A stretch of 64,000 nt of DNA from Eledone cirrhosa (taxonomy: Eukaryota). The notes beneath the pieces were generated by a model. It was not told the origin of the DNA. It did not search any database and saw only the letters and a list, made by a program, of their open reading frames with translations. The stretch spans positions 116,312,001 through 116,376,000 of the forward strand of contig OZ024742.1 of assembly GCA_964016885.1 (NCBI GenBank), in the 5' to 3' direction. The stretch's first letter is position 1, and the number at the start of each line of letters is the position of its first letter. Of the stretch, positions 2,258-53,398 are shown one piece after another. The position numbers were made by a program, and so were the translations under genes.

Positions 2258-5200
2258 ATGGAGACTAGAACGTCATGTGACAGACTCTCACCCAACAGGT
2301 ACCCCCTGGCTCAGCAGCAGGAACCTGACTGTCAACCAAATACTGCTGATGTTGGAGGAAGGAGAAGAAGGAAAGGGGCCAGAACCAACTGGACGAAATA
2401 ATTGAATAGAACTGTTATGCAATGTTACCTGAAAAGTAACCCCAAGGAGAGGGGCTACAGGAGACGGATGCATAACATCTGGAACGAGATTGGTTTATTT
2501 AAATTAGATGAACAAAAATTGGCCGGGCAGGCTCGGGTAATAAGAACTAATGGGTGGATAAGCGAGCTGGAACTGGAGGAACTGAGCAGAGAGAATGGCT
2601 TCGAGATGGCGGGTGTAGTATGCCAGACAAGCGAGCCAGTGGGAAATGAAGGTGGAGAGGTCCTGAGAACGGAGGAACCACCCGAAGCAGACAATGATCT
2701 GAATACTGAGATAAATAATACCTGGAACAGAGATACGGCCACTGAGGAGATGAATGCTGACGGGCTAGGACAAGATTCGGTTGACATCCTAAATTTAGTG
2801 GTAGATGAATTGAACAATGATAGTGGGAGACCTATGAACCTAAGATTTGTAGACAGGAAAAAGTTAAAAGAAACAACAGCTAAGGTAAACAAAGTCATCC
2901 CATACCTTGAGGCGAGGAGCCTTCACCAGTGCAACAATATCCTCAAAGCAACAGCAAATACGGTGAGGAAACTACTTGGTATAAAAGCGAGAGGAAACAA
3001 CAGACAAGAAAGAGCAGAGCCGTGGTGGAAGAAGCGACTGAGTGGGCAAATCGGGGAAATGAGAAATGACATAGGAAAGCTTGAGTCACTACTGAATGGG
3101 ACACTCAAAAACATAGGCACTAAAAATAGACTGGAAATAAAATACAAAACTAGGAGGAGAAAGCTAAATATTATCATAGAGGAACTGAAGCAACGCATTG
3201 TAGCAAAGAGTGCAAAAATCAGGCGATACGAGAACAGAGTCAGTCAGTATAAACAGAACCGCATGTTCGACAACAACCAGAAGATGCTGTTTGGACAGCT
3301 TGAGGGGAAAGAAAGAGGCAACGACTTGATCCCTGGGGCGGAGCAAACTTAAACATTCTGGAGAGGAATATGGGAGCAGGATGTTAGACATAATGTCCAG
3401 GCAGGGTGGATTGAGACAGTACAGAGGGAGATCGGTGAGCAGGCACAGCAACAAACTGATTTGAGTATCACAGTTGAAACTCTTAAGGGGCAGGTAAAAA
3501 AACTAACCAACTGGAAATCACCAGGCCCAGATGGTGTGCAGGGGTATTGGATTAAACATTTAACATCCCTCCACCCGAAGCTGACGGCCATGTTCAATGA
3601 CTGCTTGGTGTCGGGTGAGGTGCCAGAGTGGGTGACAAAAGGTACCACAGTTCTGATAATGAAAGACCGAATCAAGGGTAATGATGTTACCAACTATAGA
3701 CCTATTACATGTCTGTCCGTAATGTGGAAACTGTTGACGAGCATTGTGTCTGAGGAAATCTACCATCACCTCCACACAAACAACTTGTTAGCGGACGAAC
3801 AGAAAGGATGCCGAAAGAAGTCACGTGGTACAAAGGACCAGTTACTTATTGATAAGATGGTAATTGGGAATTGCAGGAGGAGACACACAGATCTTGCCAT
3901 GGGATGGATAGACTACAGAAAGGCATTTGACATGCTGCCTCATTCTTGGATCACCAAAAGCCTGGAGATCTTCAGGGTGGCAGATAACATCAGACAGTTG
4001 CTAGGCAGGAGTATGGGGTCCTGGGAGACAGAGTTGACATCAACTGGAGTATCCTTGGGAAGCGTGAAGATCAAGAGAGGTATCTTCCAGGGAGATAGCC
4101 TGTCCCCTCCGTTGTTTGTCCTTGCCCTGATGCCCTTGACCATTATGCTGCGAAAAGTGAGAGCAGGATACAAGTTGGGAAGGGGAGAGCTTACCATCAA
4201 TCACCTCCTCTTCATGGACGATCTTAAGCTCTTCGGAAAGAGTGAGGAGTTGGATGTGCTTGTTGACACTGTCCGTATTTTCAGCAATGATATATGTATG
4301 CAATTTGGTATTAGTAAGTGTGGAGTCATTGTGATGAAGAGGGGTAAGTTGAGCAGAAGTAACGGAATCCAGGTACCAACAGGTGAGATGATAAAGGAAA
4401 TTGACACTGAAGAAGGATACAAGTATTTGGGCGTTCTGGAGGCTGATGACATCAAGAACAAAAAAATGAAGGAATTGATAAGCACTGAATACATTCGGAG
4501 AGTAAGGAGCGTATTAAAATCACATTTAAACAGTAGGGATGCCATAAGTGCAGTAAATTCCCGAGCTGTGTCTATAATTAGGTACAGTGCGGGAATTCTG
4601 AGATGGAATGTTGCTGAACAAAAAGAAATGGATAGGAAGACTAGGAAGCTATTGACTATCTACAACATGTTCCACAAGAGGAGTGATGTCGATAGACTCT
4701 ACTTAAGGAGATCTGAAGTTGCAAGAGGTCTTATCGGCATAGAGGACTGTGTTCAGATGGAGAAAAATAACCTACACAAATACGTGACTGATAGTAAGGA
4801 GCCAATGCTCAGAACTGTACTGAAGGAGGGAACAATAGGCCAGGGGATGTCCAAGGAGGAAATAACATCAAGGAGAAAGAGCAGCCTTAAGGGAAAATCC
4901 CTACATAGTACCTTCTTTGAGAAAACTGAATTTAAAGATCCACAGACATGGAACTGGTTGAAAAGAGGAGACCTTAAACAGGCTACAGAAGGAATGTTAA
5001 TGGCTGCGCAGGAGCAGGCCCTCAACACGAAGTGGTTGAAACACCATATTTACAAGGAGGAGGCTAGCCCACTGTGCAGGGTCTGTGGAGAGAGAGAGAG
5101 GAGACTGTGGCTCACATTGTATCCGAGTGTAAACACCTAGCCCAGACTAACTATAAAGGCTGGAGACATGATGTGATAGGCAGGGTGATCCACTGGCACC

Positions 5201-5745
5201 TATGCCAAGTAAACAATTTACCACATTCTGAGAAGTGGTATGAGCATAAGCCAGAGTCGGTGATGGAAAACGATCAGATGAAGGTGCTGTGGGATTTTAG
5301 GATACAGACGGACAAGAAACTGGAACACAATAGACCTGACCTGGTGGTTTTGGACAAGGGAAAAATATCGTGCCTGATTGTGGATGTAGCCTGCCCATTC
5401 GACACGAGAGTGCAAGAGAAGGAGAGGGAGAAAATTAACCGATACAAGGACTTAAAGTGGGAGGTAAAATGATTTGGAACTGCCATGAGGTCAAAGTGGT
5501 CCCGATTGTCATAGGCGCTCTACGTACTATCTCAAAGAGTTTCTAAGGATAGCTAAAGAAAATTGGTCCCGCCCCGCTTTTTGGAACACTTCAAAAGGCA
5601 TGTTTGCTGGGAACAGCAAGAAGCCTCCGATACGTCCTGAATATCTGAGGCTGCAGGTAGTGGTTTGATATTCATTTCAACAAACTTTCCAGTTAAATAA
5701 CATCAATGACTGAGACTCAAAGAAAAATAATAATAATAATAATAA
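2258..5745 (+). mobile_element. R4/Dong-clade RLE-type non-LTR retrotransposon, near full length, inactivated by stops and frameshifts
   Basis: One disrupted ORF (ORF-track pieces 2402-3352, 3461-5140, 5074-5472; final stop at 5646-5648). RT motifs KSPGPDG, NYRPITCL, WIDYRKAFD, GIFQGDSLSP, HLLFMDDLKLF, YKYLG; CCHC knuckle CRVC..ETVAHIVSEC; RLE motifs RHD, RPDLVVLD, VDVACPFD, EKINRYKDL. Ends in an (AAT)n tract, as expected for Dong elements that target (TAA)n. Confidence 0.92.
3461..5140 (+). pseudogene. Reverse transcriptase domain of the R4/Dong element
   Basis: 559-aa open segment with all non-LTR RT motifs, bounded by an upstream in-frame stop (3350-3352) and a downstream frameshift in a GA run (~5090-5100). 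Confidence 0.9.
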
Positions 5746-10619: not shown

Positions 10620-11290
10620 AGTTTTGCCTTCGACAGGCAGAGAACGAATTTATGAATTCTCTTTATAAAGCCGAGTGGAAATTAACGAAGAATGCTAACG
10701 GTGTTAATGAGGGAATCGCAATACATCTAATATCAAAATTGCCGTGTGACAAGTATGAGACTGCATGTATTACAGGAAACACTATAGATGTGAGATAAAT
10801 ATTCTAATTAGTGTGTATGATAGAAAATCTGCTAGAATTATAAGCCAGATCTTTCTTACACTACAGCTAGAGTCATTAAACGGATCAAAAATATTCCATT
10901 ATGTTATGCTTGATTTATTAAATTAGATTGAGTGGAGGGTCGGGGTTGGAATTGTTTTAATCACACGTCGGATCCATCAATACCGACACGGTGTTAAACT
11001 ATAACCTTCTTTTCCTTTATTCTGGTATGGTAATCGACGAATCTCCGGTAGACATAACATCTGGAAAGGGAAAAGATGAGTTGCGCATCTTTGTCAACAG
11101 AGAATTTGATATGTTATATATTTTAAAACCAAGGACGAGAACCGAAATCCTGAAAGCAAAAACACATATTGAGGGTTGTGATACGGCTTGTGAAAAAACA
11201 AATCCGGAAATAAAGAAACATAAGTCTGCCATGAGACAATAATTCGGTGAACGGTCAAAACAAAACATCAGTCGCCCTTGATCGAAATAA
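10620..11290 (+). pseudogene. Highly decayed Penelope-like element remnant (RT thumb / GIY-YIG-like)
   Basis: Fragments NEGIAIHLISKLP (cf. PLE N.P.YIH..SNHP) and KTHIEGCDT...HKSA (cf. KTYIG.C.T.FK.R..NHKS). Motif resemblance only. Confidence 0.3.
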
Positions 11291-11525
11291 CGATTTTATT
11301 ACTCAAAGCCTAGCATTAGCCAATATGTATTTTATGCAGTTTAATATAGAATAAAGTACACAGGTTACAATAGCACTCTACAGGTCAATAGATACGAGTG
11401 TACACAAACTCAAGTGTGTGTACACACACATGGTCTAGCACGAATGTGAACAGGTGTTTTTTACAAATTACAATATATTATCGGCAACGCCCTGCATTCT
11501 CCGTAGTGGTGCGTGTGCGATTGTG

Positions 11526-11589
<64 letters not shown>

Positions 11590-11592
11590 TAC

Positions 11593-11640
<48 letters not shown>

Positions 11641-12058
11641 ATTTATATATATATAAATATACATATATACATATAAATATGTGTGTGTATGTGTGTTCAC
11701 AGAGAGGGAGTTGGATAGATCGAGCAATCGATAGATAGATATGTATATATATATATATAAACACGTACAATATATGTGTGTGCGCATATGTATGTAAGAA
11801 TGTCTCTATAGATTTATATATACAGTGATATGTGTTTACGTAGGAATTTCTACACCCTTCCTCCAATTATACGAGTCCGCATTCAGTTGATGTCAGAATT
11901 GTTTTTAATTCTATAGTAAGATAAACATAAATTCTGATTATATACACATAAATATATATGTTAGAATGTGTGTGCGCGTGTGTCTTTACATGCTGTTATG
12001 TGTGTGTGTACGTGTGTGTGTTTGAAAGTGTGGATTCTTGTGTGTGACATGCTTATTT

Positions 12059-12102
<44 letters not shown>

Positions 12103-12240
12103 GTTTGAGGTTCACCACTGTATAGAGCTGGTCTTTTCCGTATGGTCAATCGTAATGTAATAATATAGAGAGTACTCAACGTAAAGCAGTTCAACCGTCT
12201 TTGTTTTTGTAGTTGGTGGTGCTATTACGGAGTTAAATAT

Positions 12241-12402
12241 TATAATGAAATGACAGGAGGCTGGATTTGTGTAAATCCCTTGAAAGATTTATTATACTAT
12301 GATCATTTCAATGACCGGGTTCCGTATGAATCCGGTCATTGAAATGATCATAGTATAATAAACCTTTCAAGGATTTACACAAATCCAGCCTCCTGTCATT
12401 TC

Positions 12403-12408
<6 letters not shown>
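12241..12408. repeat. Fold-back inverted repeat made of the 3' half of a hammerhead module (family of 22088-22145)
   Basis: Near-perfect arms around the imperfect hairpin accgggttccgtatgaatccggt. Each arm carries GAAA-tgatca-TA-gtat-aataaa but no CTGATGA. A further partial arm lies at 12441-12473. Confidence 0.9.
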
Positions 12409-12446
<38 letters not shown>

Positions 12447-12486
12447 GAAATGACAGGAGGCTGGATTTGTGTATATATATATATGT

Positions 12487-13226
12487 ATACAATAGTACAG
12501 CATATTCGAAGTTCGATCAGCAGCCAAGCCAACGAATGCCTTCAGCAGTACAGCCAAGCACTCGACAAGGAATAAACCTCAGAGTAATAACATACAGTTT
12601 AAAGGGCTTTGCAAATTGAAAATAGCGACCGCTAATTTAGCCGCATGATCTGTAGCAAAGAAAGAACTGACTAATGAGAAAAGGAAATACACACACACAC
12701 ATATATATATATACATATAAAAATATACATACATACATATATGCACATATCTGTATATATAACATACCCGGACCGACACTTGGAAATTACTGAACATCCA
12801 AGTGAGGTTTCTGTAAATCCGAAATCAACAAAATCCGCTTGTGGTGTATACAAGTTAGGTTTCTGGAAGATCGAACAGAGGAATTTACTTTCTCAACAGG
12901 CTCTCGTTCTAACCCAGAACCAGGTGTGAAGCACATGTTACTCCAAAGGGAGGTAACCCCGGTTTCTGGCGGTCAATTAAAATATTATGGGCAATGGAAA
13001 AAAATGACATACACATACTGAATTAAGCACTCAATCAGACCGTTATTAAACAAACTTAAATAATTAACCAATCAATGGAATTGTCAAATTAAATTAATCA
13101 ATTAATCATTAAGTCTAGGAAATAGTAATACAATAGTACAGCATATTCGAATCTCGATCAGCAGCTAAGCCAACGAATGCCTGCAACAGTGGAGCCAAGC
13201 ATTCGACAGGGAATAAACCTCAGAGT
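12487..13226 (-). mobile_element. TA-flanked element with ~100-bp terminal direct repeats (12487-12585, 13128-13226; period ~641) containing a variant HHR-like motif at 12952-13041
   Basis: The direct repeat is read directly. Minus strand: ggt-CTGATTGA-gtgcttaatt...aattgaccgcca-GAAA-ccgggg-TT-acc; stem I is only 3 bp. Confidence 0.6.
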
Positions 13227-13301
13227 ATATATATATTATAGAGTAAAATGAGAGGAGGTTGGACAGTTTGTATTCCTTTAGATGTTATTACTGCAAACAC
13301 T

Positions 13302-13353
13302 ACACTATGCTCATCTCAGTAGCCAGGTTACGAATGAATCCGGTTACATCTTC

Positions 13354-13359
<6 letters not shown>
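13302..13359 (-). ncRNA. Degenerate type I hammerhead ribozyme (family of 22088)
   Basis: atac-CTGAAGA-tgtaaccggattc...ctggctact-GAGA-tgagca-TA-gtgt; GAAA has mutated to GAGA. Confidence 0.6.
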
Positions 13360-13444
<85 letters not shown>

Positions 13445-15251
13445 TATATATATATATTTGAAAAAAGCAAAAGAATGACTTCACTTGTAGTTCTAAACAA
13501 TTTGATTTAATTTCATATCATAATATTATGAGTTGGTAGATCTAGTAAATTGTTTGTTAACTTCGGTGGGAATATTTTTTAAAGATTCCTGGTTAACTTA
13601 CTTGGATAACTTTCTCCCATTCGTCGGTGGCGATTGTCAAACTGAGATCAGGTTGTTTGGTAATGTGTGACTCTATATATGAGAGATGTAGATGTGACTA
13701 GGAGGTTGGGTGGGGTGTTAATGAGTGTGGTATTTGATGAAGATTTAAAGGAATTAAAGCATACACATATACACACATGCATATATATATATATACGCAT
13801 ATACACATATATACACATATACACAGAAAATGGGGAATGGTGGCAGCAAGATAACTGATGGGAGTGCTGTTGAGTTTTCTTAAAGAGTGTTTAAGAAAAG
13901 GGCTGTAAAAGTGCCCTCCGGCTGGTTCCATTTGAATAAAGGACCTTTGATAAATATAATGGCAGGATGTTTATCAGATCCGTTACTTATAGCTGAATCA
14001 ACTCTCTTAAATTTATAATGAATACCATCACCAATTTTATATATACGAGTATATATATATATATATATGTGTGTGTGTGAATGATTGCTAAATGAATGTC
14101 CATAGAATTTGTATTCATATCTAATGAGTAAATTAAAATCGATAATGCAAACATAATTTTTGCGTATCGATTACTTTCCATAAAAAGTCATCAGGAATTT
14201 AAAAAGGGAATCAAAATGTTCCATAGAAATGGTGAAGCATAGAGTATGATTAATCTGAAACATGAGACATAACCATAATCATACCTGTTACGTACTCCGA
14301 ATAATATGAAACATTTAGAAAAGTAATGTTAAAACGAAACGAGATATAAAATAGAGGTCAGTAGTCGCTACTATACATGCCGTCTCTAAAGGGACGTTGT
14401 CTGATTTTCTAATCTATTTATAGCAATCATCTGCATTGATAGTAGTATTCTGAGTTTGAGTTTCAAATATGTTCTATGAACATCATAATAATCTGCCAGG
14501 CCTTCGAAAGTTCGAACTTTATATAGGATTTTGATTTCATACAAATATGTTTATTTACCTCCTAATTTAGAGGTGAATGTAGTCAGGGACAGCCGGTATA
14601 TAAAGGATATGAAGTTCAATTATTCATAGTGACCGTTTGCCACATTCAATTCATCTATAAGAGGTACTTCTTTCCCTCTCACATCTTTTTTCGTCATATC
14701 TGTCTCTCCCCCACTCTTCCTTTCTCCTTCTTGCTGCTTCTTTGCTTCTCTTCCTTTTCCCCATGCCCGTCGCTCTTACTTGCCGCTTCCACTTGCTACC
14801 ACATCTGCAGCGCCAGAACTTGTCCTTTCTAGCGACGTCTTAGTGTTGAGCGTACGCATTTTACTTCTCTCTCTGATCTATCTGTCTGTCAAACTAATTT
14901 ATTCGGTTTATCACGCATGCATCATGCCAGCAGAAATATTTATTTTCTACTGCAAGAGCCGGCAATTTTATGTAATCATTTCAAGTTAAATCGTGCGAAA
15001 CTACAGACGGTCTGAGATCCAATGAGGTGAAAGGATGTTTATATGATCTTGTCTCGTTCATTTCCCTCCTTTACTCTTTTCTTCCTATCAATACTGCGAG
15101 CCAACACTGTCTTTTGCGGCAATTTTTACCCGACGGCGTCAATGACTGAATTTTGGTATTTTTACAGCTATTTTTGCGTTGAACTTTTCGCATTATTCTA
15201 TGATTTCTAATACAATAACGGTTCAATCAGATCTTCGAGAAAACTTTGTTC

Positions 15252-15283
<32 letters not shown>

Positions 15284-15299
15284 ATAAACGCACCCAGAC

Positions 15300-15343
<44 letters not shown>

Positions 15344-15871
15344 TTACGTATGTGTGCATGTGTGTACGTATACAATTCAATAAGTACGTATATTAGATTA
15401 ATTAATTATCAATGCCTCTCTCCTTGCGTATTTTATATTCAATTAAAAACGTAATTAAACAATATTGTCTCTCAACAAACAGTTTGAAGAATTTGCTGAT
15501 TTAGAAGCAATCACACCTCATCACAAGCTTATAGGTTGTAAGTAATCAAATGATTCCATTAACACCACAACCTCTCCACCATCTCTACCACCTCTACTGC
15601 CTTCACTTCCGTCAACACCCCTCTAGAATCGGCATTACCCACATATCATGTGAATGGGAAAATAGCGCGACGGAAAAAATTATTTTGTGCTATTTTTCCG
15701 ACTCCGTTCCATCTGAGGTAGATTCCTGCTGAGGAAACTTTGTGTTCATGAATCTGGGGTCAATAAAATAGTGGAGTAACCCAATTCAACCAATTCAACA
15801 TACACCTCCCTAAATTCCAGGCCTGTCTTTCTTAATCATTATTCTAATCTTGAATGGCATTCTCACACACA

Positions 15872-15990
<119 letters not shown>

Positions 15991-16524
15991 GCTATTCACG
16001 GATGGATATATTTTTCACTTATGGTTATCTACACCGAGTTATCTTGAGAAACAGGAGCAGAAAATAAAATATATTATAAGATAACAAAATAATTTAACGT
16101 TAATTTTTATGTCTCAACCAGGCACAGTGCCACCATATTTATGAGAAGAGCAAAGTTGATAATCGCAAATCCATTACGTGATTGATACCTTATTTTATCG
16201 ACCCCGGGCAGATGAAATGCAAAGTTAATCACGATGGGACTTAAAGATGAAAATCAACTTTTTTTATTTTTAAATTGAAATAGTGTATACTACAGAGTCA
16301 AGTTAGGAAAAGGTACGAGTGCGGGATAATGGCATTAGGTGGAACTCTTGAAGACCTTCACCTGAACACGCGTACTGAAAAAAGTACAGAGTGTGCAGCT
16401 CAAGCGGTCTAAAAAATAAAAAAAAACAATGAGAGAATGGTGGGGGATTTAAGGTATATAGCGGTATCAAAATTATGAGATGGAGGTAATATACGTTTGT
16501 GTGTGTATAAATATATATATATGT

Positions 16525-17131
16525 GGTGGCTGCCAACTCGTTTTCGAGTACGGCCACTACTTTATATCCATGTAGGAGAACCCTACCGATGCGCTGAACG
16601 AGTGTGACTTTTTAGTGCAGCCAGCGACTTGAAAACTCTGATACAAACACTACACTTGTGACAATTATTGACACATAGTGCTGGGCCCATGGTACCATGA
16701 GACGACAAGTGCAGAGAGATCTCCAGATATAAAGCAATGCCTGTGCCGTGAAGCTTTTATAGTGAGCAAAGGCACTGCACAAAGCCAGTCCCACTCTCTT
16801 AACAAAGATGATATTTACCAAAAAGAAGAACAAGTCAACATCACTGGATACCATCAGGGTTGCAGGTGTTATATCAGAGTTTACCTTCTCCTAGAATTCT
16901 GCCTTGACAAAGGCTAAGGGGTCATCTCTCCCTGTGATTTTGGATGGCCATTGACTCTTAAGAGCTCCTTTGCCCTTTGACAGGTTTTGTTTTTAGTCCT
17001 GCAGGATATCCCCAGTCACCCTCCTCACAAAGAAACCTTGGTGGGGTTGCCAGTTTAGTCGCCAATGACCCGACCATGAGACAGGTTGTACTGGGATACA
17101 TGTTACCAGTAGCACCAGCTGGTGACCTGAC
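16525..17131 (-). mobile_element. ~600-bp non-autonomous RTE-like element (UTR-like 5' part joined to a LINE 3' end with a C2H2 finger), inserted in (TA)n
   Basis: High similarity to 45787-46391. The minus-strand 3' part encodes [23 protein letters not shown] (C-x2-C-x12-H-x4-H; stop at 16583-16585), typical of RTE-clade ORF C-termini. Confidence 0.7.
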
Positions 17132-17254
17132 ATATATATATATACATACATACATACATATAAACGTATATATACAATACATACATACATACACACACAC
17201 GCAGATGTATAAAGATACAATACATACATAAACACTGATACACACACATACGCA

Positions 17255-17339
<85 letters not shown>

Positions 17340-17459
17340 ATATATATATGCAAAAGAAACCAAAGAACGCTTACATATGTACATTGAGCTAACACAATAC
17401 TGCAATAATACAGTAAGGTGAGTAGGTGTTTATGCACATACGCTCCGCACTTTACGTAA

Positions 17460-17558
<99 letters not shown>

Positions 17559-17689
17559 CATATATATGTGTGTGTGAGTGTGTTTTATGTATTTGCTTTG
17601 AAATAATCTTGGTATGAAATCTTTTGCTGAAACAAGATGCTTCTATATTTTGCCAGTAGATGCACACTCACTAATCGATTCTTATTTGA

Positions 17690-18200
17690 GATGTATTATT
17701 AGTTATTAGTCGACGATAACCCAGTAGGGGAATTAGCCAATTGTTTTCGAAAAGCCTTGGTAAACTGACTCTAGGAATTAAAGTAGTATACAAGCCAGGA
17801 ACTCCCATAAAATCCCTAATCAGTAGGATGCACCTTTTAAAAGAAACTTTCAAATAGGAATTCTATAGTGTGTAGGGAAATCCCACAGTTAAACTGCAAA
17901 ACTAGGAATGTTGTCATTCGGATAAGATGTACAGAGGAGTGCAACAGAAATATGACATTGACATATATAGGAAAGGTAGACCGTAGCGTAGGAGAGAGGA
18001 TAAAGCAAAACTGGCGAAAACTTAAGGAGGGAAAATTCTCGTCAGTGTTAAACTAGCAGGCAAAAGTAGAAGATGGGATCTCGATAGATAACATAGAAGT
18101 TATGATACTATCAACACATAGAACCGACATTGCACTCAGGCAAATTATGAAGGCCTTACACATAATAGAATGTAGACCGAGCCTCAATAGAAAACGCTAA
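17690..18200 (+). pseudogene. Penelope-like GIY-YIG endonuclease remnant
   Basis: NCKTRNVVIRIRCTEECNRNMTLTYIGKVDRSVGERIKQ matches the PLE pattern NC...NVVY.I.C..C....YIG.T.R.L..R..EH; downstream ALHIIECRPSLNR matches E...I....PSLN. Confidence 0.7.
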
Positions 18201-19039
18201 TGGAATAGTAACACCCTCACCACACTAACTAACTACTTAAGACAGAATAAGACCAATGACATGAAAAAAGAAAGATATATATACAAGTAATGCAATACAC
18301 AACCCCTGCTCTCCCAGACCCACAAGACACACAAACAGAGATAAACACATAGACACACATAAAGGACCAATCGCAAACACATAAGCAGAGAAAAAACATA
18401 CGACAGAAAGATATGATATAGTTATCAGAAGACAAAAAAGAATGGGAAACACATACACGGAGAAGAACATCAAAGGGTCATCGAAGAGGCAACCGAATGT
18501 GTGATCAAAGAGCCTTGACAAACTAATAACTAATAACCTGTGTTTTTATTGGCAAAATCACCATACCCAAATATAACAATATATATGTGTGTGTTTGTGT
18601 GTGTGTGCGTGCGTGCGTGTGCGTGTGTGTACATGTGTGTGTATGTGTGTGTACATGTGTGTGAAGCCGAATTGGCAACGTCGCAAAGTTGATGGAAAGA
18701 ATGATTTGTGGTATTTGCTCTGTATCTCTGCGCATTGTGAGTTCAGATCTCACCAAGATCAAGTGAGCCTGCGATCATTTCTTTATTGCTAAAACATTTT
18801 ACCAGTACAGTACAGGATTGATTCCTCCTATACATCTATTTTCCTTATTCATCTCTCACATTATTTTCCCTCTTAAATAAATCTATTAGGTCCTGGCCAG
18901 AGAAGAAATGGTTTCAGTCAGGTTTTAAAAATGCCCAAGAAACAACATATACACATATACACATACGAACATATACACATACATAGACACATACGCACAC
19001 ATACACATATATATATGTGTACATATATATATGTTTAAT

Positions 19040-19390
19040 GTGCTACACGAGAATGCTGAGGTTGACTCTGAACATTAATCAGTATACACTGAGGATGAAA
19101 AATTCAGAGCTGTATGGGAGCATCCCAAAAGTCAGCTCAAAAGTGACACAGAGGAGACTGAAGTTAGCTGGACATGCTCACCGACATCCAGAGTTGACAT
19201 TGCACTCAGTGCTCCTTTGGGAGCCCCTACATGGACACACTAGAAGAGGAAGACCAAGGTTAACGTATGTTGATACCCTAAGGACAGACAGTGGTCTGTT
19301 AGAGATGCAGGACATGGCAGCGATAATGAGGGACAGAGACCGCTGGAGAGACGCCGTCCATGGATCTCGTGAATTTTACCCGCCTTAGAT
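19040..19390 (+). mobile_element. 5'-truncated RTE/RTEX-type LINE 3' end
   Basis: CYTRMLR...RRLKLAGHAHRHPE...[20 protein letters not shown]...MRDRDRWR is the typical RTE-group C-terminus; flanked by (TA)n. Confidence 0.8.
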
Positions 19391-19400
19391 ATATATATGT

Positions 19401-19519
<119 letters not shown>

Positions 19520-19562
19520 TATATACTACGGGTATGTATATATATATATATATATATATATT

Positions 19563-19683
19563 CATGGATGTAATTTTGTGAAGATAATTTGTATACTATG
19601 TGTGTGTATATATATATATATTTAATGATATATATATATACACACACATAGTATACAAATTATCTTCACAAAATTACATCCAT
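19563..19683. repeat. Inverted repeat centred on a (TA)n tract
   Basis: atggatgtaattttgtgaagataatttgtatactatgtgtgtg ... cacacacatagtatacaaattatcttcacaaaattacatccat. Confidence 0.85.
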
Positions 19684-19782
19684 CTTTCTACAACACATAC
19701 GTATTCATACTCTGTCATCCCTGCATACCCATATGCTTCAATATAATTTCATTTCCCGAAAGAACGTATTACTACAAACACA

Positions 19783-19870
<88 letters not shown>

Positions 19871-20125
19871 ATGTATATATATACGTTTTCCTGTGTGTGC
19901 CAATATATATATATGTGTATGTATGCAGGGACGTTTATGTCTATGTGTTTACGAAAGCGTTTGTGTGTGTGTGTTTGCATAATTTAATATAGTTATAATT
20001 GATATATTTATTAATGTTTGCATTGATATAGGGATGTGTGCGGATGTGTTTGTTTACTGATGTTTACTTAGCGGCCTGTTTCAAGTAAACGAATGACTAT
20101 TAGATATCAAAGTCATTTCCAGTCG

Positions 20126-20145
20126 AGTAGTAGTAGTAGTAGTAA

Positions 20146-20225
<80 letters not shown>
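20126..20225. repeat. (TAG)n microsatellite
   Basis: Direct reading; similar tracts at 29372-29500, 32275-32333 and 53995-54093. Confidence 0.95.
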
Positions 20226-20611
20226 TGGACATGAACAAGAACTCTAAAACTGATGAAGAAATAAATATAAAACGTATTTGATGTGGTACCATATTCAAAT
20301 GAGCAAAGGCGTAAATGAAAACCTCTAATTATTATTTAGAAATGGAGTGGAGGAAAAGATAGTTAGAGAGAAGACGACATATTTGTTTTCATGAAAGTTA
20401 CTGTTTGATTTTTATTTGTAGCCTACATTAAATAGTGTCAATATAATAAAAAGTTTCGTGCAATATAAGCTCATCATATTTTATATGTGAGTGTGTGTGA
20501 GTATGTGTGTGTGTATGTGTGTGTGAATACACTAGCATATCAAACATAATTTTCTGGAATTTTATATTTACAAAGGGATATATCAAAAAATGTATTAATG
20601 TTTTCCATTTA

Positions 20612-21010
20612 GGGCGGTGGATTGGCTGTATCGGTAGAGGGTCGGAGGCCATTCTTTTCAGCAAAGAGTTACGGCCCCTTATGATCTGAGTTCAAATCCC
20701 GCCAAGGTTAACTTTGCCTTTCATCCTTACGGGGTCGATAAAATAAAGTACTAGTAATACACTGAGATAATTGCTGGCCTTGTGCCAAAAGTAGAAACAA
20801 TTATTAGCGATAAACGATGAATTCGCAAGACCGAGAGTGAGCGTCGGAGCAGTATCGGTAAAGAGTTGGAGGTCATGTTTGCAGCATAGAGTTATGGCCC
20901 TATACGGCCTGATTTCAAATCCCACCAATTTTAACTTTGCCTCTCATCCTTACGGGGTCGATAAAATAAGGCACCAGTAATGCACTGGATAATTGTGCCA
21001 CAAGTAGAAA
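20612..21010 (+). mobile_element. Two SINE family A copies (20612-20803, ~20848-21010)
   Basis: ggcggtggattggctgtatcggtagag head, gagttcaaatccc B box and conserved core. Confidence 0.85.
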
Positions 21011-21366
21011 AGATGAATTACGTTATGGTTATTTTACATTCAGCGATCAGATCTCGCACTATCAGATATGTAGTTGAGTATGTCTGACCATCTGTACCCA
21101 CATACATACACATACGTAACAAAGGTTGTGTCTTGTCACACAGCCAAGGAGAATAACGCTTAATCTATTGTAAGAAGCTAATTTAATATGAATCAAATGC
21201 CATATACTTCATATGTTTGCATGACCATAGGTTCCGGGGTTTAGTTATGACTCCCACAAAATAGTGGAGGATCTGTTCTAATACTCGCATCTCATAGGAC
21301 CAAATTCTGGATTCCGAAACCTAAGGACATGCATAAAAGCTAATTTATATGAAATTATAATGATAC

Positions 21367-21462
<96 letters not shown>

Positions 21463-22087
21463 AAAAATTAAATTAATTTCCATTTCTTTCGCTGGACGAC
21501 ACTTGGTTAGGAGGTGCTGGCTGGGATTCACATTCGAAGGCTTTAATCTTTATCCCACCCTGATATCTTATTGAGATTAACTTTTTCATATAAGACTCTC
21601 TCTGTAAGTTCATTAAATAATTTTGTTTATTTATTTTCCAATTTTCAATTTATTATTTTTTAATTTAATTTCATCCTATAACTCGTAACATAAGTTTAAC
21701 GTTCCAAATTTCTGTTCACACTTTAGACCATACAGACACCCATTATATATGCCTTTGTTAAAATATAGATTCTTTAGAATAACATTTTACGCGGCGTTTT
21801 CTAGCTTGACTGTAGTGTGACCCTTACGCTGACTTCTTTATTTCTTTTTTCTTCCTTTTTTTTTCTTTCTCTCTTGGTTCCCCTTTTTTATTCTTTAACG
21901 GAGAGGTGGTTGTACATTATAAGCCTTCTCCCCCTCACCAGATGGTCATTAGCAGATCGAGTTGCCATCACCTTCAGGGTGACTGGCCGAGGTGAAGACA
22001 GCTAGTTGGTCAGTCGTCCTCTCTGTCTCTGATTTTTCGGACCCATTGGTTTTTACATATTCCTTTGTTATATTTGTTATATTTCGA

Positions 22088-22145
22088 ATACCTGATGATA
22101 TCACCGGATTCATGTGGAACCCGGTCATTGAAATGATCATAGTAT
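22088..22145 (+). ncRNA. Type I hammerhead ribozyme with palindromic minimal stem III
   Basis: Stem I atac/gtat; CTGATGA 22092-22098; stem II accgg/ccggt; GAAA 22130-22133; stem III tgatca; cleavage triplet AUA; AATAAA immediately downstream. Confidence 0.85.
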
Positions 22146-22184
22146 AATAAACCATTCAAGGATTTACACCAGTCCAGCCTCCTG

Positions 22185-22240
<56 letters not shown>

Positions 22241-32759: not shown

Positions 32760-32967
32760 TAGATATTAATTCTTTATATATATATATATATATATATAAA
32801 GAATTAATATCTAGTAACATATATATACATACAGATGCATATCAATGCTAGCAAATATATAGGTTTTGTCTTCGTAACATTGTGGTTCAATGCATGGGGT
32901 TGCAGAACAATAATATAAGAGACGTAAAATAAGAAAATTATAAAATTAACTTACTTACTAAAATATC

Positions 32968-33049
32968 ACTTCCAACTAATTAGTTTCTGGAATGGAGTAA
33001 ATATATTTTCCGAAAAGGATATTGAGAAACATTCCGTCGTCAGGGAAGT
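32968..33049 (-). ncRNA. Type I hammerhead ribozyme
   Basis: acttcc-CTGACGA-c-ggaatg...cattcc-a-GAAA-ctaattag-TT-ggaagt: 6-bp stem I, 6-bp stem II base, palindromic stem III, GUU triplet. Confidence 0.88.
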
Positions 33050-33489
33050 CTATTCTCAGCTATGTTTCCAGGCAAAGCGAGGACTCTGGAAACTTATTAA
33101 AAAATAATTCAGAGGATAGGAAATAGCAAAGCGTGGACTGAATTCCTAGCCATTGAGAAAATCACTGCCTCTGCGTCTGTGGCAAATTCAAAAAGAATCA
33201 ATCACGTGACATCGAGGCCAATCAGTGGAAAGTGGTTTGCTAATAAGACAGCGGCCTGCCTACTACCAGTGCAGCAGTCATGGCCAATATTGCTCGACAA
33301 ATAATTTGGAGATAATTATAAAGAATTAATATCTAGTAACATATATATACATACAGATGCATATCAATGCTAGCAAATATATAGGTTTTGTCTTAGTAAC
33401 ATTGTGGTTCAATGCATGGGGTTGCAGAACAATAATATGAGAGACGTAAAATAAGAAAATTATAAAATTAACTTACTTATTAAAATATC

Positions 33490-33571
33490 ACTTCCAACTA
33501 ATTAGTTTCTGGAATGGAGTAAATATATTTTCCGAAGAAGATATGGAGAAACATTCCGTCGTCAGGGAAGT
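33490..33571 (-). ncRNA. Type I hammerhead ribozyme (second monomer)
   Basis: Same core and stems as 32968-33049, 522 bp away. Confidence 0.88.
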
Positions 33572-34026
33572 CTATTCTCAGCTAAGTTTCCAGGCAAAGC
33601 GAGGACTCTGGAAACTTATTAAAAAATAATTCAGTGGATAGGAAATAGCAAAGCGTGGACTGAATTCCTAGTCATTGAGAAAATCACTGCCTCTGCGTCT
33701 GTGGCAAATTCAAAAAGAATCAATCACGTGACATCGAGGTCAATCAGTGGAAAGTGGTTTGCTAATAAGACAGCGGCCATAGCAGCAGTCATGGCCAATA
33801 TTTCTCGACAAATAATTTGGAGATAATTATAAAGAATTAATATCTAGTAACATATATATATACATATATATATATGTAACATATATATATATATATATAT
33901 GTAGGAGGTGACTTTTATTGTAGTACAATAAAGCAATGCAGATATCGGATAAGAAGCACTCTACAGTTTGTAGGACTGGAGTATACATAATATATAAGAT
34001 CAAAAGATGGTTAAAAGAGTTCCATG

Positions 34027-34097
34027 TATTTTATTATGCGCATTTCAAAAACAAGTATCATCATGCAATAATATTTGTGTTTTCATCAGATAAAATA
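34027..34097 (-). ncRNA. Type I hammerhead ribozyme
   Basis: tattttat-CTGATGA-aaacacaaatatt...gatacttgttttt-GAAA-tgcgca-TA-ataaaata (8-bp stem I, palindromic tgcgca). An inverted partial copy starting inside stem II lies at 34146-34230. Confidence 0.85.
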
Positions 34098-34221
34098 GGA
34101 AGACATGATATGAAGGTTAAAAAACACTTGTGAATAGTGCAGTTTATTATTGCATGATGATATTTGTTTTTGAAATGCGCATAATAAAATACATGGAACT
34201 CTTTTAACCATCTTTTGATCT

Positions 34222-34260
<39 letters not shown>

Positions 34261-34401: not shown

Positions 34402-34444
34402 TATACGTGGGTATGTATGTGTAATAAACTTTAATATAGTGAAG

Positions 34445-34494
34445 GCTTCTACAGGACTATAACTGTTTCATTCGAAGGAAATCATCAAGAGAGT
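34445..34494 (-). ncRNA. Degenerate HHR (family of 42346); second copy at 35153-35202
   Basis: TTGATGA-tttccttcgaat-GAAA-cag-ttatagtc-ctg-TA-gaagc; core C3 and stem I altered. Confidence 0.55.
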
Positions 34495-34985: not shown

Positions 34986-35217
34986 CATTTTACATTACTC
35001 CGGAGTAACCAAACCAACCTGCGCACTTCGTCTAGTGCTCCAGCTTGCATACTGAGGTGTTGGTATACAACCAATATATACTCAATATATATATATATAT
35101 ATATACATATATACGTGTGTATGTGTTTGTAATAATATTTAATATAGTGAAGGCTTCTACAGGACTATAACTGTTTCATTCGAAGGAAATCATCAAGAAA
35201 GCGTGATATTTATATCT

Positions 35218-39959: not shown

Positions 39960-40643
39960 ATAAAGAATTAGTATATCTACTAACACATTTATACAGAAAT
40001 ATACTTATGCTAGCAAAATATAGGTTTTGTCTTAGTAACTGTGTGGTTCAATACAAGACGTAAAATAAGAAAATTATAATAATTAACTTACTTACTTAAG
40101 TTTCACTCCAACTAATTAGTTTCTGAAAGGGGATATATATAGTGTTCAAAACCATGGAGAATTCATTTCTTCATCAGGGAGTCAATTCTCTGCTAAGATC
40201 CCTGGCGATAGGCGGACGCAGGGATCTCAAGCAAAAATAATTCAGTGAATGGAAAAGGAGCAAGCTCAGACTAAATTTCAAGGCACTGCTATGATTCATA
40301 GTAATATTTTGGCTACTGTCTTTTTAACACCCCACTCCTCACTGATTAACCTCGATGTCATGTGATCGATTCTTTTGAATTTGCCACCGACCGAGAAGGT
40401 AGTGAAATTTTCAGTGTCTTGAAATTTAGTCCGCGCTTGCTTCTTTCCCATTCACTGAATTATTTTTGTTTGAGATCCCTGTGTCCGCCTATCGCCAGGG
40501 ATCTTAGCAGAGAATTGACTCCCTGATGAAGAACGGAATTCTCCATGGTTTTGATCATTATGTATATCTTCTTTCAGAAACTAATTAGTTGGAGTGAAAC
40601 TTAAGTAAGTAAGTTAATTATTATAATTTTCTTATTTTACGTC

Positions 40644-40646
<3 letters not shown>
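39960..40646. mobile_element. Diverged relative of the 522-bp HHR monomer, arranged as an inverted pair
   Basis: Starts taaagaattagtatatctac like the 32796 unit; arms ~40056-40285 and ~40415-40646; (TA)n flanks. Confidence 0.85.
40518..40595 (+). ncRNA. Type I hammerhead ribozyme (counterpart on minus strand at 40105-40182)
   Basis: actcc-CTGATGA-agaa...tttca-GAAA-ctaattag-TT-ggagt. Confidence 0.83.
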
Positions 40647-42345: not shown

Positions 42346-42396
42346 AGCTTCCTGAAGATTTCATCTGAATGAAACAGTACTAGTCCTGTAGAAGCT
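42346..42396 (+). ncRNA. Type I hammerhead ribozyme in a perfect palindrome (mirror copy on minus strand at 42299-42349)
   Basis: agcttc-CTGAAGA-tttcatctgaat-GAAA-cag-tactagtc-ctg-TA-gaagct. The palindrome (~42287-42408) is centred on aag|ctt, inside the 5' strand of stem I. Confidence 0.88.
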
Positions 42397-42485: not shown

Positions 42486-42558
42486 CAGATGGTAGCTAAG
42501 AGGATTCCATACGCGGTATGCCGGTTGAGCACTCTATGCTCTTACAGTGCAGAGTATG

Positions 42559-42778
42559 ATATAATATAAAACGAAAAATCAGTGATGCATCTGAACTCAA
42601 TTTATTGTGTGTTACAATTGTTTCCCCGGCCGACAGCTCTAGACGCGATCATTGCGTGGATCACTCTGATTCTGGACCCGCAGATAGATCGCGTCTCGAG
42701 CTGTCCGCCGGCGAAACAATTGTAACACACAATAAATTGAGTTCAGATGCATCACTGATTTTTCGTTTTATATTATAT
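42559..42778. repeat. Fold-back inverted repeat made of HHR 3' halves around a long GC-rich stem II-like hairpin
   Basis: Perfect outer arms carry GAAA-caattg-TA-acacac-AATAAA; the inner hairpin (~42625-42712) is imperfect; no CTGANGA. Confidence 0.85.
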
Positions 42779-42869
42779 ATATATTTGCTGGATAAAGTGT
42801 ATTTATAAATAACAGGAATGCACGAACGGGGGATAATTTCCCTTTCATCAGTTGTCTGCTGGAGATCAT

Positions 42870-42927
<58 letters not shown>

Positions 42928-43131
42928 ATGCGTGTGTGTGTGTGTGTGTGTGTGCGTGTGTGTGCGCGTGTGTGTGTGTGTGTATGTGTGTGTGTGTATG
43001 TGTGTGGTGCGTATGCATGTATGTATGTGTCATGTATGTGTGTGTGTCTAAATTCACACATGACACAGTCACACACATACATATATATAAATATATCTCT
43101 CTCTCTGTCTCTCTCTCTCTCTCACTCTATG

Positions 43132-43169
<38 letters not shown>

Positions 43170-44598
43170 TTTATATATATGTATGTGTGTGATTGTGTCA
43201 TGTGTGAATTTAGACACACACACATACATGCACACATACATACATACATGCATACATATACATACATATATATATATATATGTCCATGATTCCATGATCT
43301 CCAGCAGACAACTAATGAAAGGGAAATTATTCCCCGTTTAGACACACACACATACATGCACACATACATATATACATTCATACACACACATGTGTATATA
43401 TATATATATACACATATATGTATATACACATATATATATATGAATATGAGTCTGTACACACACACACATGTATATATGTCTATGTATGTATGGACGTAAC
43501 GTTTAATTTATATCGAAGTAAATTTCAATGGATATTTAAAATATATATATTTACATAGGTATATTTACGTTTGTTTTATTTTATACATAGTGATTTGTAT
43601 ATTGTGTGAAATTTCTGTGGTTTTAGGTAGGTAGCGGTTCAAGAAGGAATGTTGTTTTCTGCGATCCAAAAAGAAAAAATAAACAAAATTAACCGAATTG
43701 TATAGGAATATAAGATGGAGTTAAGGCATATTTCAAATATTAGAAAATTAGCTTTTTATTATATCAGTAATGCCATTTGGATAATAACTTTTTAATTTTA
43801 TTAAAATGTACACAGTTCTAAACTATCTATTTTACAATTCCCCTACATAATACAGTTTGTAAAGTATACTCGTGCGTAAAACTTTGCACTGTTTCAAAAA
43901 TGGTGTTCATCTTTTACGAGAAAGAAGTATATATAACGAAGAAACACCTTCAATACTAGTATTTACATTTTCTGACTAAATATTAGTATATAAAGTGGTT
44001 AAAAAGTACATATTTATATATTCGTGATATATTGTATACAATTTCAATGGTTTGGGAGAAGGAAGGTCTTGAATAGAGTGTACCAGCTTTCACTGAGCGT
44101 TCGTTAGAGCATTAACGAAGAAAACACCGGAAATTAGAAATTTTAACATGACGTAAATTATCGTGTCATGTAAGCATAGGCAACAGTAGTCGATGCAATT
44201 GCCCACTATGTTATTGTGGTGTTGGAAGTGAGAACGGCGGTGGCAATGTCGGTTATTTAAACATTCTCATACTGCACTTAAACCTCGCAGTTCGCTTCTT
44301 TGTTGTTGCAAACTCGCCTAGAGCTGCCGGTATTTCTTTCGTGTTGACTATATTATTCGTCTGAACATATTTCATTTGCGAAGAAGGATTTAGTTATATT
44401 CTCATACACTATGTATACATATAAATGTATGCATACTGGGAAGGCTATATACGTGTGCGTATATGTGTCGGTATCTGTGCATGTATGTATGAGAAAAATA
44501 TACACACACCCGCACATAAACACATATACAGACACACGCACACACAAACACACAAATGCACGTACATATATATATACGTACATATATACATACACACA

Positions 44599-46728: not shown

Positions 46729-49231
46729 ACACGGTTGTGTATGATTGTGTATAGAAGATTATATTAATAAAAGGAATTCCAACCTTGTCTGATTTACTCG
46801 TTTTATTTACAATCGTTTAAAATTTATAATGGTATTAGAATGAAATAGTATGGTAGAATATTAAATGTTAAGTGTTAATTGAACAAGAACTTTCATGATT
46901 TCGCAATCTTCGGGTTCATATCTGTGGTGACAGTCAAGTTTGCAATTTTCAACTCTAATGAGATGGGTAAATTTTTTGCCTTATATACAGTGAAAAGTGG
47001 CTACAGAATGCTAAATGTTGCAAACTGTATTTTGACCAATCGGTGTGTAGTTTCACTGGATTACTAAAGCTGATTGGTTTAGGCGCCACGGTTGGTTGAG
47101 AATGTCTAACGACTACTATTTGACCCAATCCGAAGCATCAATTGTTTTGCTATTTTTAGAAATGTACTCATCACATCAACATCACTTTTATTATTATTAT
47201 TGTTGTTGTTGTTAGTGGTCTTAGTCATAGTCATGGTAGGATTAATACCCCATTATAATTGTTCATCTAGCTTGGATTGGAATTCATCAATAAAATTATT
47301 TTCTTTGATTTTTCTCTTGATTTCACTTGGGCTGTGTAATTTGTATAATGGAAATATAAATATTCTCTGACCACATGTTGCTAGATGGTTACTCAGGGGT
47401 ACCTGACGGACATATGGGTCTCTGATTTGCTGTCGGTATACCCGTGCACTTTCCGATAGTGCATTTCCAGTTTGACCGACATATAGTTCTTCACAATTCG
47501 GGCATTTAATGCAGTAAATTAGATTTCTGCTTTTGCAGTTCATATTTGCATTTGGGAATTTTTTTCAAGTTTTTTTATCATATATTGACCGGTATGTATG
47601 GATTGACATGTGCCACATCGACTATCATTGCATTTAGATACAGTGAATTATTGGTCTTTGTTGTTAAGGTCAAACTTTGCTTTGTTAGTAATTGCTTCAA
47701 ATTTTTCGGCTGTCTTTTACTAAGAGTCAAAGATCGATCTGTGATTAAGCCTTTTAATTCATTACTTTGAGCAATGATCGGTAGGTTTGCTTTGGCAGTG
47801 TTGAAGATATTCTGGTGACATGGGTTGTGTGTCATTATAAATGGTATGACCAGTTCTTGGTTTCTTCTTCCTTGGGTTGTCCTAAGTTGTTGTATATGTA
47901 TTTTTATAACCCGCTATATGCCATGTTCTATAAGTAGAGATGGGTATTTTTGTTTGAGCAAAAATTCTCGCAGTTCTGTTAGGCGTTTGTTCCTGGTATT
48001 CGTATTTTCTACAATGGTACATATTCTTCTGGCTAGGCAGTATGGGATGTTGCGTTTTGTATGAGGTGGATGGCACGACTTAAAATTCAGATATTGATGG
48101 GTGTCTGTGTGTTTATAATATATATCCGTGGTAATGGTGGTGTCGTATGTGATTACCATTATATCTAGGAATGGTAATTTGGTACTACTCATCTCTTTTG
48201 TGAATTGGAGAGATGGGTGTAGATTATTCAGGAGGATATTGAACTCATCCAGAGTATGTAGAGATTCTGTCCAGATGATGAAACAGTCTTCAAGGTATCT
48301 CTTCCAAGATTGTTCAATGTACTTTCTAAAGACAGTACTATATTTTTCCTCTATTTCTTGGTAGAGTTGTTGTTCTAAGTATCCCATTACAGAGTTCGCG
48401 TAAACGGGAGCAAACTTCGTTCACATGTAATTATTTCCATTGAAGAAGAAAGTGTTGTTTTCCAGAATAAATTTGACTGCGTCTAATATGAATTGTGCTG
48501 TGTATCTGGTGGGAATCACTTCTCTATGTTTTTCCACACAGTATTTAACCGCCTTTATTCTAAATCATGTGTAATGTTGGTGTAAAGGCTTACCACATCA
48601 AAACTAAGTAGAAGTGAATTCGTTTCCGTGGTTTTGGGAAGATGGGACAAGAAGTCGATATCATCCCGGATGAAACTGGGTATGTGAATACATAGCGGTT
48701 TTAAAATAATGTCAACAAAATTGCTTAGACGGTGGGTAGGGCATGTTGGACCAGCTATAATAGGTCTAAGTTTTAAGTCTTTTGGGTGTAGTAATTTAAT
48801 GTTCTCACTGTTTTGTTCTTTTACTGCCAGGTGTATTTCTTTTGACTTATGAACTTTCGGTAGGCCAAACAGGTTGCTGGGTTTTGGCTCAAAATTGGTG
48901 ATGTAGTCTCTTTCCTTTTCAGTAAGTGAGTTGTGGTATTTTGAAGCCAGGTTGTTGATCTTCTTCATGATGTTGTGGTCTATATTTGACGGTATTTCAT
49001 GATAGAATGTTGTGTCTTTCAGTTGTTCCTCAACCACATCTTTGTAGTATTCACCATCCATTATTACAGCTGCACCCCCTTTATTTGCTAGTTTAATTAT
49101 TATTGTTTTATCATTTTGTATACGTTTAAGTGCAGACATTTCTGATTTGTTAATGTTTGACCTAACATTAGTATTACGTCTAAGAGGAAATTTAGACAGG
49201 ATGTCAATGTATTGGTCGAGATAGATATTTC

Positions 49232-49235
<4 letters not shown>
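46729..49235 (-). mobile_element. Penelope-like retroelement, 5'-truncated and decayed (RT + GIY-YIG + 3' UTR/pseudo-LTR)
   Basis: IIIKLANKGGAAVIMD, LFGLPKVHK, LRPIIAG, SFDVVSLYTNI, WKRYLEDCF (RY.DD), LPFLDI, TDIYYKHTDTHQYLNFKSCHP, NCKSRNLIYCIKCPNCEELYVGQT (GIY-YIG). 3' non-coding region 46729-47250 has an HHR-like motif at 46880-46918; (TA)n at the 5' junction. Confidence 0.92.
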
Positions 49236-49273
<38 letters not shown>

Positions 49274-49307
49274 TATAAAATAAAAAGATGGTTAAAAGAG
49301 TTCCATG

Positions 49308-49378
49308 TATTTTATTATGCGCATTTCAAAAACAAATATCATCATGGGATGATATTTGCGTTCCCATCAGATAAAATA
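49308..49378 (-). ncRNA. HHR of the 34027 family with a core mutation (CTGATGG)
   Basis: tattttat-CTGATGG-...caaatatcatc/gatgatatttg...-GAAA-tgcgca-TA-ataaaata. Confidence 0.72.
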
Positions 49379-52977: not shown

Positions 52978-52985
<8 letters not shown>

Positions 52986-53398
52986 TAAAAGAAATTCCAA
53001 CTTTGTCTGATTTACCCGTTTTATTTACAATCCTTTAAAATGTATAATGATATTAGAAGGAAATAGTATGGTAGAATATTAAATGTTAAGTGTTAATTGA
53101 ACAAGTACTTTCATGATTTCGCAATCTTCAGGTTCATAATGTGTGGTGACAGTCAAGTTTGCAATTTTCAACAGTTGAAAATTGCAAACTTGACTGTCAC
53201 CACACAATATGAACCTGAAGATTGCGAAAGCATGAGAGTACTTGTTCAATTAGCACTTAACATTTAATATTCTACCATACTATTTCATTCTAATACCATT
53301 ATGAATTTTATAGGATTGTAAATAAAACGAGTAAATCAGACAAAGTTGGAATTCCTTTTATTAATATAATCTTCTATACACAATCATACACAACCGTG
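52978..53398. mobile_element. Solo PLE 3' end (pseudo-LTR) in fold-back configuration, homologous to 46729-46952
   Basis: Arms meet at ttttcaacagttgaaaa (~53173). HHR-like tgaac-CTGAAGA-ttgc-GAAA-gcatgagagtac-TT-gttca at 53210-53248 (+), with a counterpart at 53098-53136 (-). Confidence 0.88.

Follow-up and report, generated by a model that had tools for sequence, protein, structure and literature searches.

A head-to-head palindrome with its axis on hammerhead stem II, formed by the end of a putatively Penelope-like repeat

Inverted, 5'-truncated pLTRs are standard for EN+ Penelope-like elements (PLEs), as described in PMC8557442, and the palindromes at inverted Penelope junctions were already read in 2013 as the result of self-priming with an antisense template (PMC3846280). 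In that study it is the antisense template that primes; a nascent cDNA is not made explicit. In the parts of both papers covered here, the junction is not placed on stem II of a hammerhead. The origin of the tandem and inverted ends and of the second strand of PLEs is still an open question (PMC8557442; PMC11167929). Hammerheads in the pLTRs of metazoan PLEs include, according to PMC4209133, opposite-strand dual motifs 100–700 bp apart, beside dispersed single motifs from truncated PLEs.

Comparable junctions are described for other retroelements. Snap-back of the cDNA is a named junction class in TPRT by R2 (PMC11371274 and PMC11331408), where the 3' end of the cDNA primes on itself before the 5' junction is formed and yields sequence in antisense orientation. 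R2 belongs to the non-LTR clade, however, and in these sources the templates were engineered and the class is a minority. During twin priming of L1 and in fold-back duplications (PMC10191854; bioRxiv 10.1101/2024.12.14.628481), inverted sequence likewise arises at integration, from a second primer or from a 3' end annealed to itself.

The window, i.e. the whole stretch of 64,000 nucleotides of Eledone cirrhosa DNA that was analysed and to which all positions refer, contains at 12241–12408 a head-to-head palindrome made from a hammerhead-bearing repeat of high copy number, namely its 3' end, with the axis on stem II. Its parts, the adjoining pieces and the intact reference copy are as follows:

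12241..12313, sense on the - strand: left arm, comprising the 3' part of the module (GAAA half of the core, helix III, cleavage site and 3' end)
12314..12336, sense on the - strand, antisense on the + strand: hammerhead stem II, on the + strand a hairpin of nine pairs, one of them G.T, with a 5-nt loop
12337..12408, + strand: right arm, an inverted copy of the left arm without CTGATGA
12405..12444, no strand: (TA)20 run, a second axis of symmetry
12441..12473, - strand: third piece, the final ~31 nt of the module in inverted orientation
22088..22191, + strand: intact reference copy, a minimal type I hammerhead and then the 3' end, followed by (TA)n

From 12241 onward, the + strand is the reverse complement of the intact copy at 22100–22195 (88.9% over 99 columns, E 9e-31 for the match within the window), running from the module's 3' end through stem II as the original prediction had stated. 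The first stem arm (12314–12322), the loop CGTAT (12323–12327) and the second stem arm (12328–12336) follow each other, with the axis at 12325 and the junction after 12336. At this point the intact copy would give gatatcatcag, whereas the letters run on as cattgaaatg. The self-copy, which had been proposed to begin here, is evident from the arms, which agree at 79 of 82 columns, and the self-match of E 7e-69 in a search within the window shows that the palindrome did not arise by chance. The right arm contains GAAA at 12341–12344, a T-GATC-A helix III with its palindromic loop, the TA cleavage site and the GTAT strand of helix I. The predicted loss of the catalytic core was confirmed: the CTGATGA half is absent from the palindrome, and no piece of the missing 5' half (21900–22102) was found within 11000–14500. 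Neither strand of the palindrome holds a complete ribozyme, and the locus is therefore without evident function.

The description of several natural mismatches kept inside, between near-perfect outer arms, stands only in part. Stem II shows one natural mismatch, which also occurs in the intact copy and is A.C in the sense RNA and G.T on the antisense strand, together with the 5-nt loop. The remaining two of the three arm differences, a substitution and an additional base, occur only in the outer part of the left arm. Both arms agree with the change 22154 A>T (749 of 761 and 260 of 279 X7 reads), and variants relative to the 22088 copy are common to both arms and the third piece.

The original interval also contained the (TA)20 run and the third piece, which were left unexplained. 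This piece (12441–12473, 33 nt) is an exact direct repeat of 12241–12273. The complete insert of ~230 nt (12241–12473) thus consists of three pieces with two axes and holds no ORF; both arms stop at the 3' end of the element without entering the flank, and unique sequence resumes beyond. By its length of 31–33 nt the third piece would fit a PLE tail, which is optional and measures 30–40 bp (PMC8557442; PMC11167929), and it may represent one. As a separate observation, a direct repeat of 91% over 100 nt (12487–12586 and 13128–13227) lies just right of the palindrome, and its family ends with CAGAGTA.

With the inverted pLTRs of EN+ PLEs (PMC3846280; PMC8557442) the locus shares the head-to-head arrangement with the 3' ends outward, a palindrome or overlap at the junction and the (TA)n context; the third piece is a candidate for the optional tail. 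It differs in the small insert of ~230 nt, the lack of an ORF and the presence of a third, inverted piece. The palindrome is an instance of this known structure, for which self-priming had already been proposed. The new elements are that stem II is recognised as the priming hairpin, apparently in two families, and that a set of palindromes is at hand for testing one-ended against two-ended models; no inverted PLE junction on a hammerhead stem II was found in the literature searched, mostly outside subscription journals. Regarding R2, the sequence corresponds to the snap-back junction as defined in the two sources, although two annealed cDNAs would give the same letters; here, the copy runs to the 3' end of the element, and the mechanism is deduced from the sequence only. 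Twin priming of L1 inverts a 5' part that is not duplicated, and L1 fold-backs duplicate flanking DNA (same sources), whereas in our case the element's own 3' end was doubled.

The intact copy reads ATAC CTGATGA ... GAAA T GATC A TA GTAT, with the core in the type I order CUGANGA ... GAAA ... UH (CTGATGA at 22092, GAAA at 22130, TA at 22140). Helix I is formed by ATAC/GTAT, helix II by ACCGG-TTC/GAA-CCGGT and helix III by T-GATC-A with a palindromic loop. This fits a helix I of 4–5 bp, a long helix II and a tiny helix III, and it resembles the short helix I, long helix II and 1-bp helix III with palindromic loop of the hammerheads in PMC4209133. The predicted MFE structure has helices I and II, with a z-score of only −1.1. 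The conserved G10.1-C11.1 pair is absent; the base of stem II shows T.T, followed by A-T or, in the reads with G at 22100 (662 of 1209 in X7), by G.T. Judged from its letters, the module matches a minimal type I hammerhead of the metazoan PLE pLTR kind except for G10.1-C11.1. Self-cleavage of this type would probably take place as a dimer or with the help of protein. Between the end of the motif and the 3' end at 22191 lie ~50 nt. Compared with the type in PMC4209133, the intact copy thus lacks this pair, and the palindrome at 12241 lacks a complete ribozyme. No hammerhead family of Rfam was found for the module among the best 150 of 238 matches. Within the same best 150 matches, those to microRNA and snoRNA families were sub-threshold and caused by the hairpins and (TA)n, and a microRNA reading was rejected. 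A diverged copy of the family was also aligned:

13301..13359, - strand: diverged family copy, 78%, found by alignment, with its pairs judged by eye

There, the A-U after T.T at the base of stem II is changed to G-C, and helix I is retained via a G.U pair. The T.T beside the core was observed in hammerhead-like motifs of at least two families (22092–22131, 13301–13359, 42352–42375, 35136–35199 and 34430–34490), two of which read TTGATGA instead of CTGATGA.

The family of the intact copy is dispersed and very abundant, with a RAD depth of ~1000–1300 over 22080–22159 versus 0 at 21840–21879. For this analysis, 2055 contigs (X4) as well as 1967 (X7) and 1860 (X8) RAD reads were aligned to the intact copy at 80% likeness; X1 gave only 11 short pieces and was excluded. 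The 3' end is fixed, since loose ends pile up at 22190/22191 into AT-rich sequence (among the rows listed, with 269 further rows), and the targets are AT-rich or (TA)n. The drop in depth at 22160 likely reflects, at least in part, an end at a restriction site, with a loose end of median 11 nt at 22153, and it was not counted as evidence of tail-less copies. No ORF linked to the family was found within the window; its putative assignment as a PLE-derived pLTR family is for this reason based on its motif, its fixed 3' end and the context of its targets. Patterns of the family gave 0 matches in metagenome and viral contigs, and a scan of viral contigs for PLE proteins found none.

The listings for X4, X7 and X8 show no strand-change joint and no accumulation of ends within stem II. 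This test has low power: the known junction at 12241 was also unlisted, RAD start sites are few (one indel was represented by 51 reads with a single start), the X4 contigs average ~83 nt, and listing required two starts or 50 reads. The result only suggests that stem II is not the dominant 5' boundary of the family. Most family reads depart from the 22088 copy at 22072–22081; 204 and 260 X7 reads have a common alternative upstream sequence, and 156 diverge into mixed AT-rich sequence at 22081, a point 11 nt ahead of the core. The departure is either a common 5' boundary or a break in the alignment.

A chimera formed during amplification or assembly at the natural hairpin is very improbable. 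The 12241 junction is not listed from any of the aligned read sets, with the low power just described, and near-perfect palindromes are frequent in the window (20 local inverted matches), both of which would fit such an artefact. However, the arms differ at the two outer sites, and those of the other head-to-head palindromes differ by ~0.6–12%. Furthermore, contigs of three runs from one sample, which may be the source sample, contain 56–70% of the sampled words of 12200–22199. Together with the end of the inverted copy at the element boundary, the unique sequence that resumes there and the occurrence of such structures in PLEs of other animals, the differences between the arms argue indirectly for a genuine locus.

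When all stops of a cDNA on the intact copy (21900–22170) were compared, the observed junction gave the best unbranched terminal hairpin, with rank 1 of 271, and it also ranked 1 of 98 within the part common to the family; as seen by inspection, ~5 adjacent stops yield the same hairpin product. The unbranched score was chosen because priming requires a simple stem at the end, and with a score that allows branched folds the junction takes rank 50 of 271. Since the locus was picked for its stem II feature, rank 1 of 271 is not an independent test. Likewise, the exact junction is no proof of an exact stop of the RT, because a longer 3' flap could have been trimmed to the stem.

The predicted stability of the stem II hairpin is higher on the antisense + strand (−6.5 kcal/mol as DNA, −12.0 as RNA) than on the sense - strand (−5.3 kcal/mol as DNA, −8.5 as RNA), because the A.C of the sense strand turns into G.T. 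The difference between the RNA forms (−12.0 versus −8.5 kcal/mol) would also favor priming by an antisense transcript that ends at stem II, folds and primes the RT, as was already proposed in PMC3846280 (Arkhipova 2013). We regard this as highly improbable for the present locus; in vitro, the RT of PLEs uses sense RNA and is primed from nicked target DNA (PMC11167929). A DNA-type search found the stretch in no RNA run.

The geometry requires that an antisense strand paired at stem II with itself or with an identical strand. We give about an even chance to the first of these, i.e. snap-back of a single cDNA at stem II during the integration of a 5'-truncated Penelope-like pLTR. The endonuclease of the element would nick an AT-rich site, and the RT would synthesize a cDNA, represented here by the + strand, from the element's 3' end through stem II. 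Its 3' end, either stopped at stem II or trimmed to it, would fold on the stem II complement and be extended on itself, which would produce the right arm; the CTGATGA half would never be copied in this process, which would account for its absence from the insert. The strand would then be joined to the right-hand target end by TA microhomology. The third piece may derive from a further template switch at (TA)n or from abortive priming by the right flank at the tail boundary. The order of events, the polymerase responsible for the extension and the origin of the third piece are all our reconstruction. It speaks for snap-back that, between the arms, the + strand carries stem II in antisense orientation, with the mismatch and the loop of the family. 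The self-priming of a cDNA on stem II put forward in the original prediction is thus in agreement with the geometry and with the best hairpin among 271 stops; it is weakened by the fact that two annealed cDNAs would give an identical product.

Such a pairing of two cDNAs is possible, but we consider it rather doubtful. In this case, both target strands would be nicked, two cDNAs primed from the 3' end would anneal at stem II, flaps would be trimmed and gaps filled, and no hairpin would be needed. In vitro, PAc acts on both strands, which it cleaves and extends; it is a predicted dimer whose two RT start sites bound the tail (PMC11167929). Two-ended priming would account for the fact that the 3' terminus forms the end of either arm. 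It demands, however, that two cDNAs reach or pass stem II, where an intramolecular hairpin should form faster. Moreover, the arms at 12241 do not differ at any of the common family variants listed (126 substitution and 12 indel rows lie beyond the listing). A natural hairpin that can be read from an intact copy makes the question of the PLE ends testable at junctions of the 12241 type, and across thousands of such palindromes, polymorphisms between the arms together with the asymmetry of tails can separate snap-back of one cDNA from two-ended priming.

That self-pairing of the antisense strand is a regular integration step of the PLEs here, which provides the second strand with stem II as the preferred primer, and that the pLTR hammerhead is kept partly for a role at the DNA level that has nothing to do with cleavage, is unlikely. 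If it were true, thousands of palindromes would constitute a major source of long double-stranded RNA in the animal.

The other palindromes of the window bear on these alternatives. Two elements are needed for the comparison:

42555..42781: second palindrome, of another family, apparently centred on a long stem II and without the CTGANGA half
46729..49235, - strand: broken EN+ Penelope-like element with an ORF in several frames and a 3' pLTR with tail

After two TA-rich cases (32707 and 37068) had been dropped from the 20 local inverted matches and 42825 had been merged with 42995, 17 palindromes were examined. A recognisable part of a hammerhead was present in nine of them, five identified by pattern and four by eye. 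Two of these nine, 12241 and 42555–42781, are centred on stem II and lack CTGANGA, the junctions of two more (33982 and 40799) touch the core or stem II and have a spacer, and five turn upstream of an intact core, at distances of 4, 41, 72, 111 and 124 nt. The latter five match the opposite-strand pairs in PMC4209133. Leaving out 12241, only one of eight is centred on stem II (chance probability 0.14–0.34). Stem II is therefore not the general cause of the palindromes in the window, and the proposed general mechanism for inverted PLE ends did not hold, the more so as, among the five that turn upstream, 52978 has no junction hairpin in the intact copy and 40055 fits poorly to one self-copying cDNA.

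The palindrome at 42555–42781 apparently has the same design in a second family and would speak in favor of snap-back. The sequence GAAA C AATT G TA follows at 42713 directly after the inner columns, which show 5 differences in 34 columns versus 1 in 70 outer columns (Fisher p=0.014, with the boundary at GAAA set post hoc). No intact copy of this family was found in the window.

Against snap-back, three further palindromes have to be considered. The palindrome at 40055 (40005–40645) has a 123-nt spacer that belongs to the right arm, while at the outer end of the left arm ~50 nt of additional family sequence are present. A self-copy cannot supply these ~50 nt unless the right arm was shortened later; two separate primings, or a later loss, fit better than a fold-back. 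The palindrome at 52978–53399 has a 1-nt loop, and only its right arm bears a tail, of 31 nt. It derives from the pLTR (46729–46954) of the broken Neptune-like PLE listed above, which is the source family of this palindrome and does not belong to the 22088 family; no terminal hairpin (0 pairs) is found at its junction in the intact copy. The same holds for the long-arm junction of 33982–34236 (cf. 49261–49426; 0 pairs in the intact copy), whose short arm stops inside stem II (rank 4–5 of 171) and is joined, with an overlap of 1 nt, to sequence 70 nt upstream of the core. Two-ended priming would explain the arm-specific tails at 52978 and 40055 as well as the short arm of 33982 ending inside stem II without self-priming.

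Of the 17 palindromes, five were left unassigned. Three more (12424, 19564 and 43034) are centred on (TA)n, which would be expected if the inversion occurred after insertion and without reverse transcription, by a break or slip near (TA)n, folding of the resected end on stem II and extension by a host polymerase. Inverted duplications at small hairpins are known from L1 break ends (bioRxiv 10.1101/2024.12.14.628481), and the triple layout X..X'..X resembles double template switching. For 12241 this origin is nevertheless quite unlikely: the copy halts at the end of the element and not in the left flank, no 5' half of the element was found within 11000–14500, and at least 9 of the 17 palindromes stem from hammerhead-bearing ends, with those ends facing outward. 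At 19564–19683 and 42825–43338, inverted duplications have (TA)n or another simple repeat at their centre, and their arms show no hammerhead; they suggest that microsatellite fold-back acts independently of stem II in the window.

In 6 of 13 palindromes (12241, 28168, 34544, 35911, 42278 and 42555; background 6.4%, P ~8e-5, with the motif chosen after it had been seen), one of the arms has the motif GAGT on its outer side at a distance of at most 14 nt, and the opposite side is usually (TA)n or AT-rich. At the edges of TA runs it occurs in only 5 of 151 cases. GAGT is a candidate for a target signal of the endonuclease. An old inverted repeat of ~900 nt (59672–60595, 356 of 479 columns matching) contains the beginning of a hammerhead-like motif within its spacer; just downstream, at 60638–60688, there is a related one.

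Among 91 PLE loci from other animals, which are mostly short contigs likely broken at palindromes, one clear hammerhead-bearing palindrome was identified (L082), centred ~770 nt upstream of the core. It is a head-to-head PLE palindrome of 2.6 kb (L082:1–2586; 98% identical, 16-nt loop) on a contig filed under a bacterial MAG. The PLE-like ORFs in 16 loci (L076–L091) of prokaryote genome bins look like contamination from host animals.

The window has a GC content of 34% and many (TA)n and (CA)n runs. The ORF at 47253–49235 of the broken EN+ element has relatives with RVT_1 and GIY-YIG domains (best E 2e-67), and many of those that are named come from bivalve molluscs; a Pfam search with four PLE fragments gave no match. 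Beside this element, an ORF in several frames for an RT of the LINE type was detected at 2402–5472 on the + strand (RVT_1, E 4e-20). Finally, the two units of a tandem pair at 32795–33889, of ~520 nt, each carry a hammerhead-like CTGACGA...GAAA on the - strand, which might represent a dimeric arrangement or a pLTR in partial tandem.
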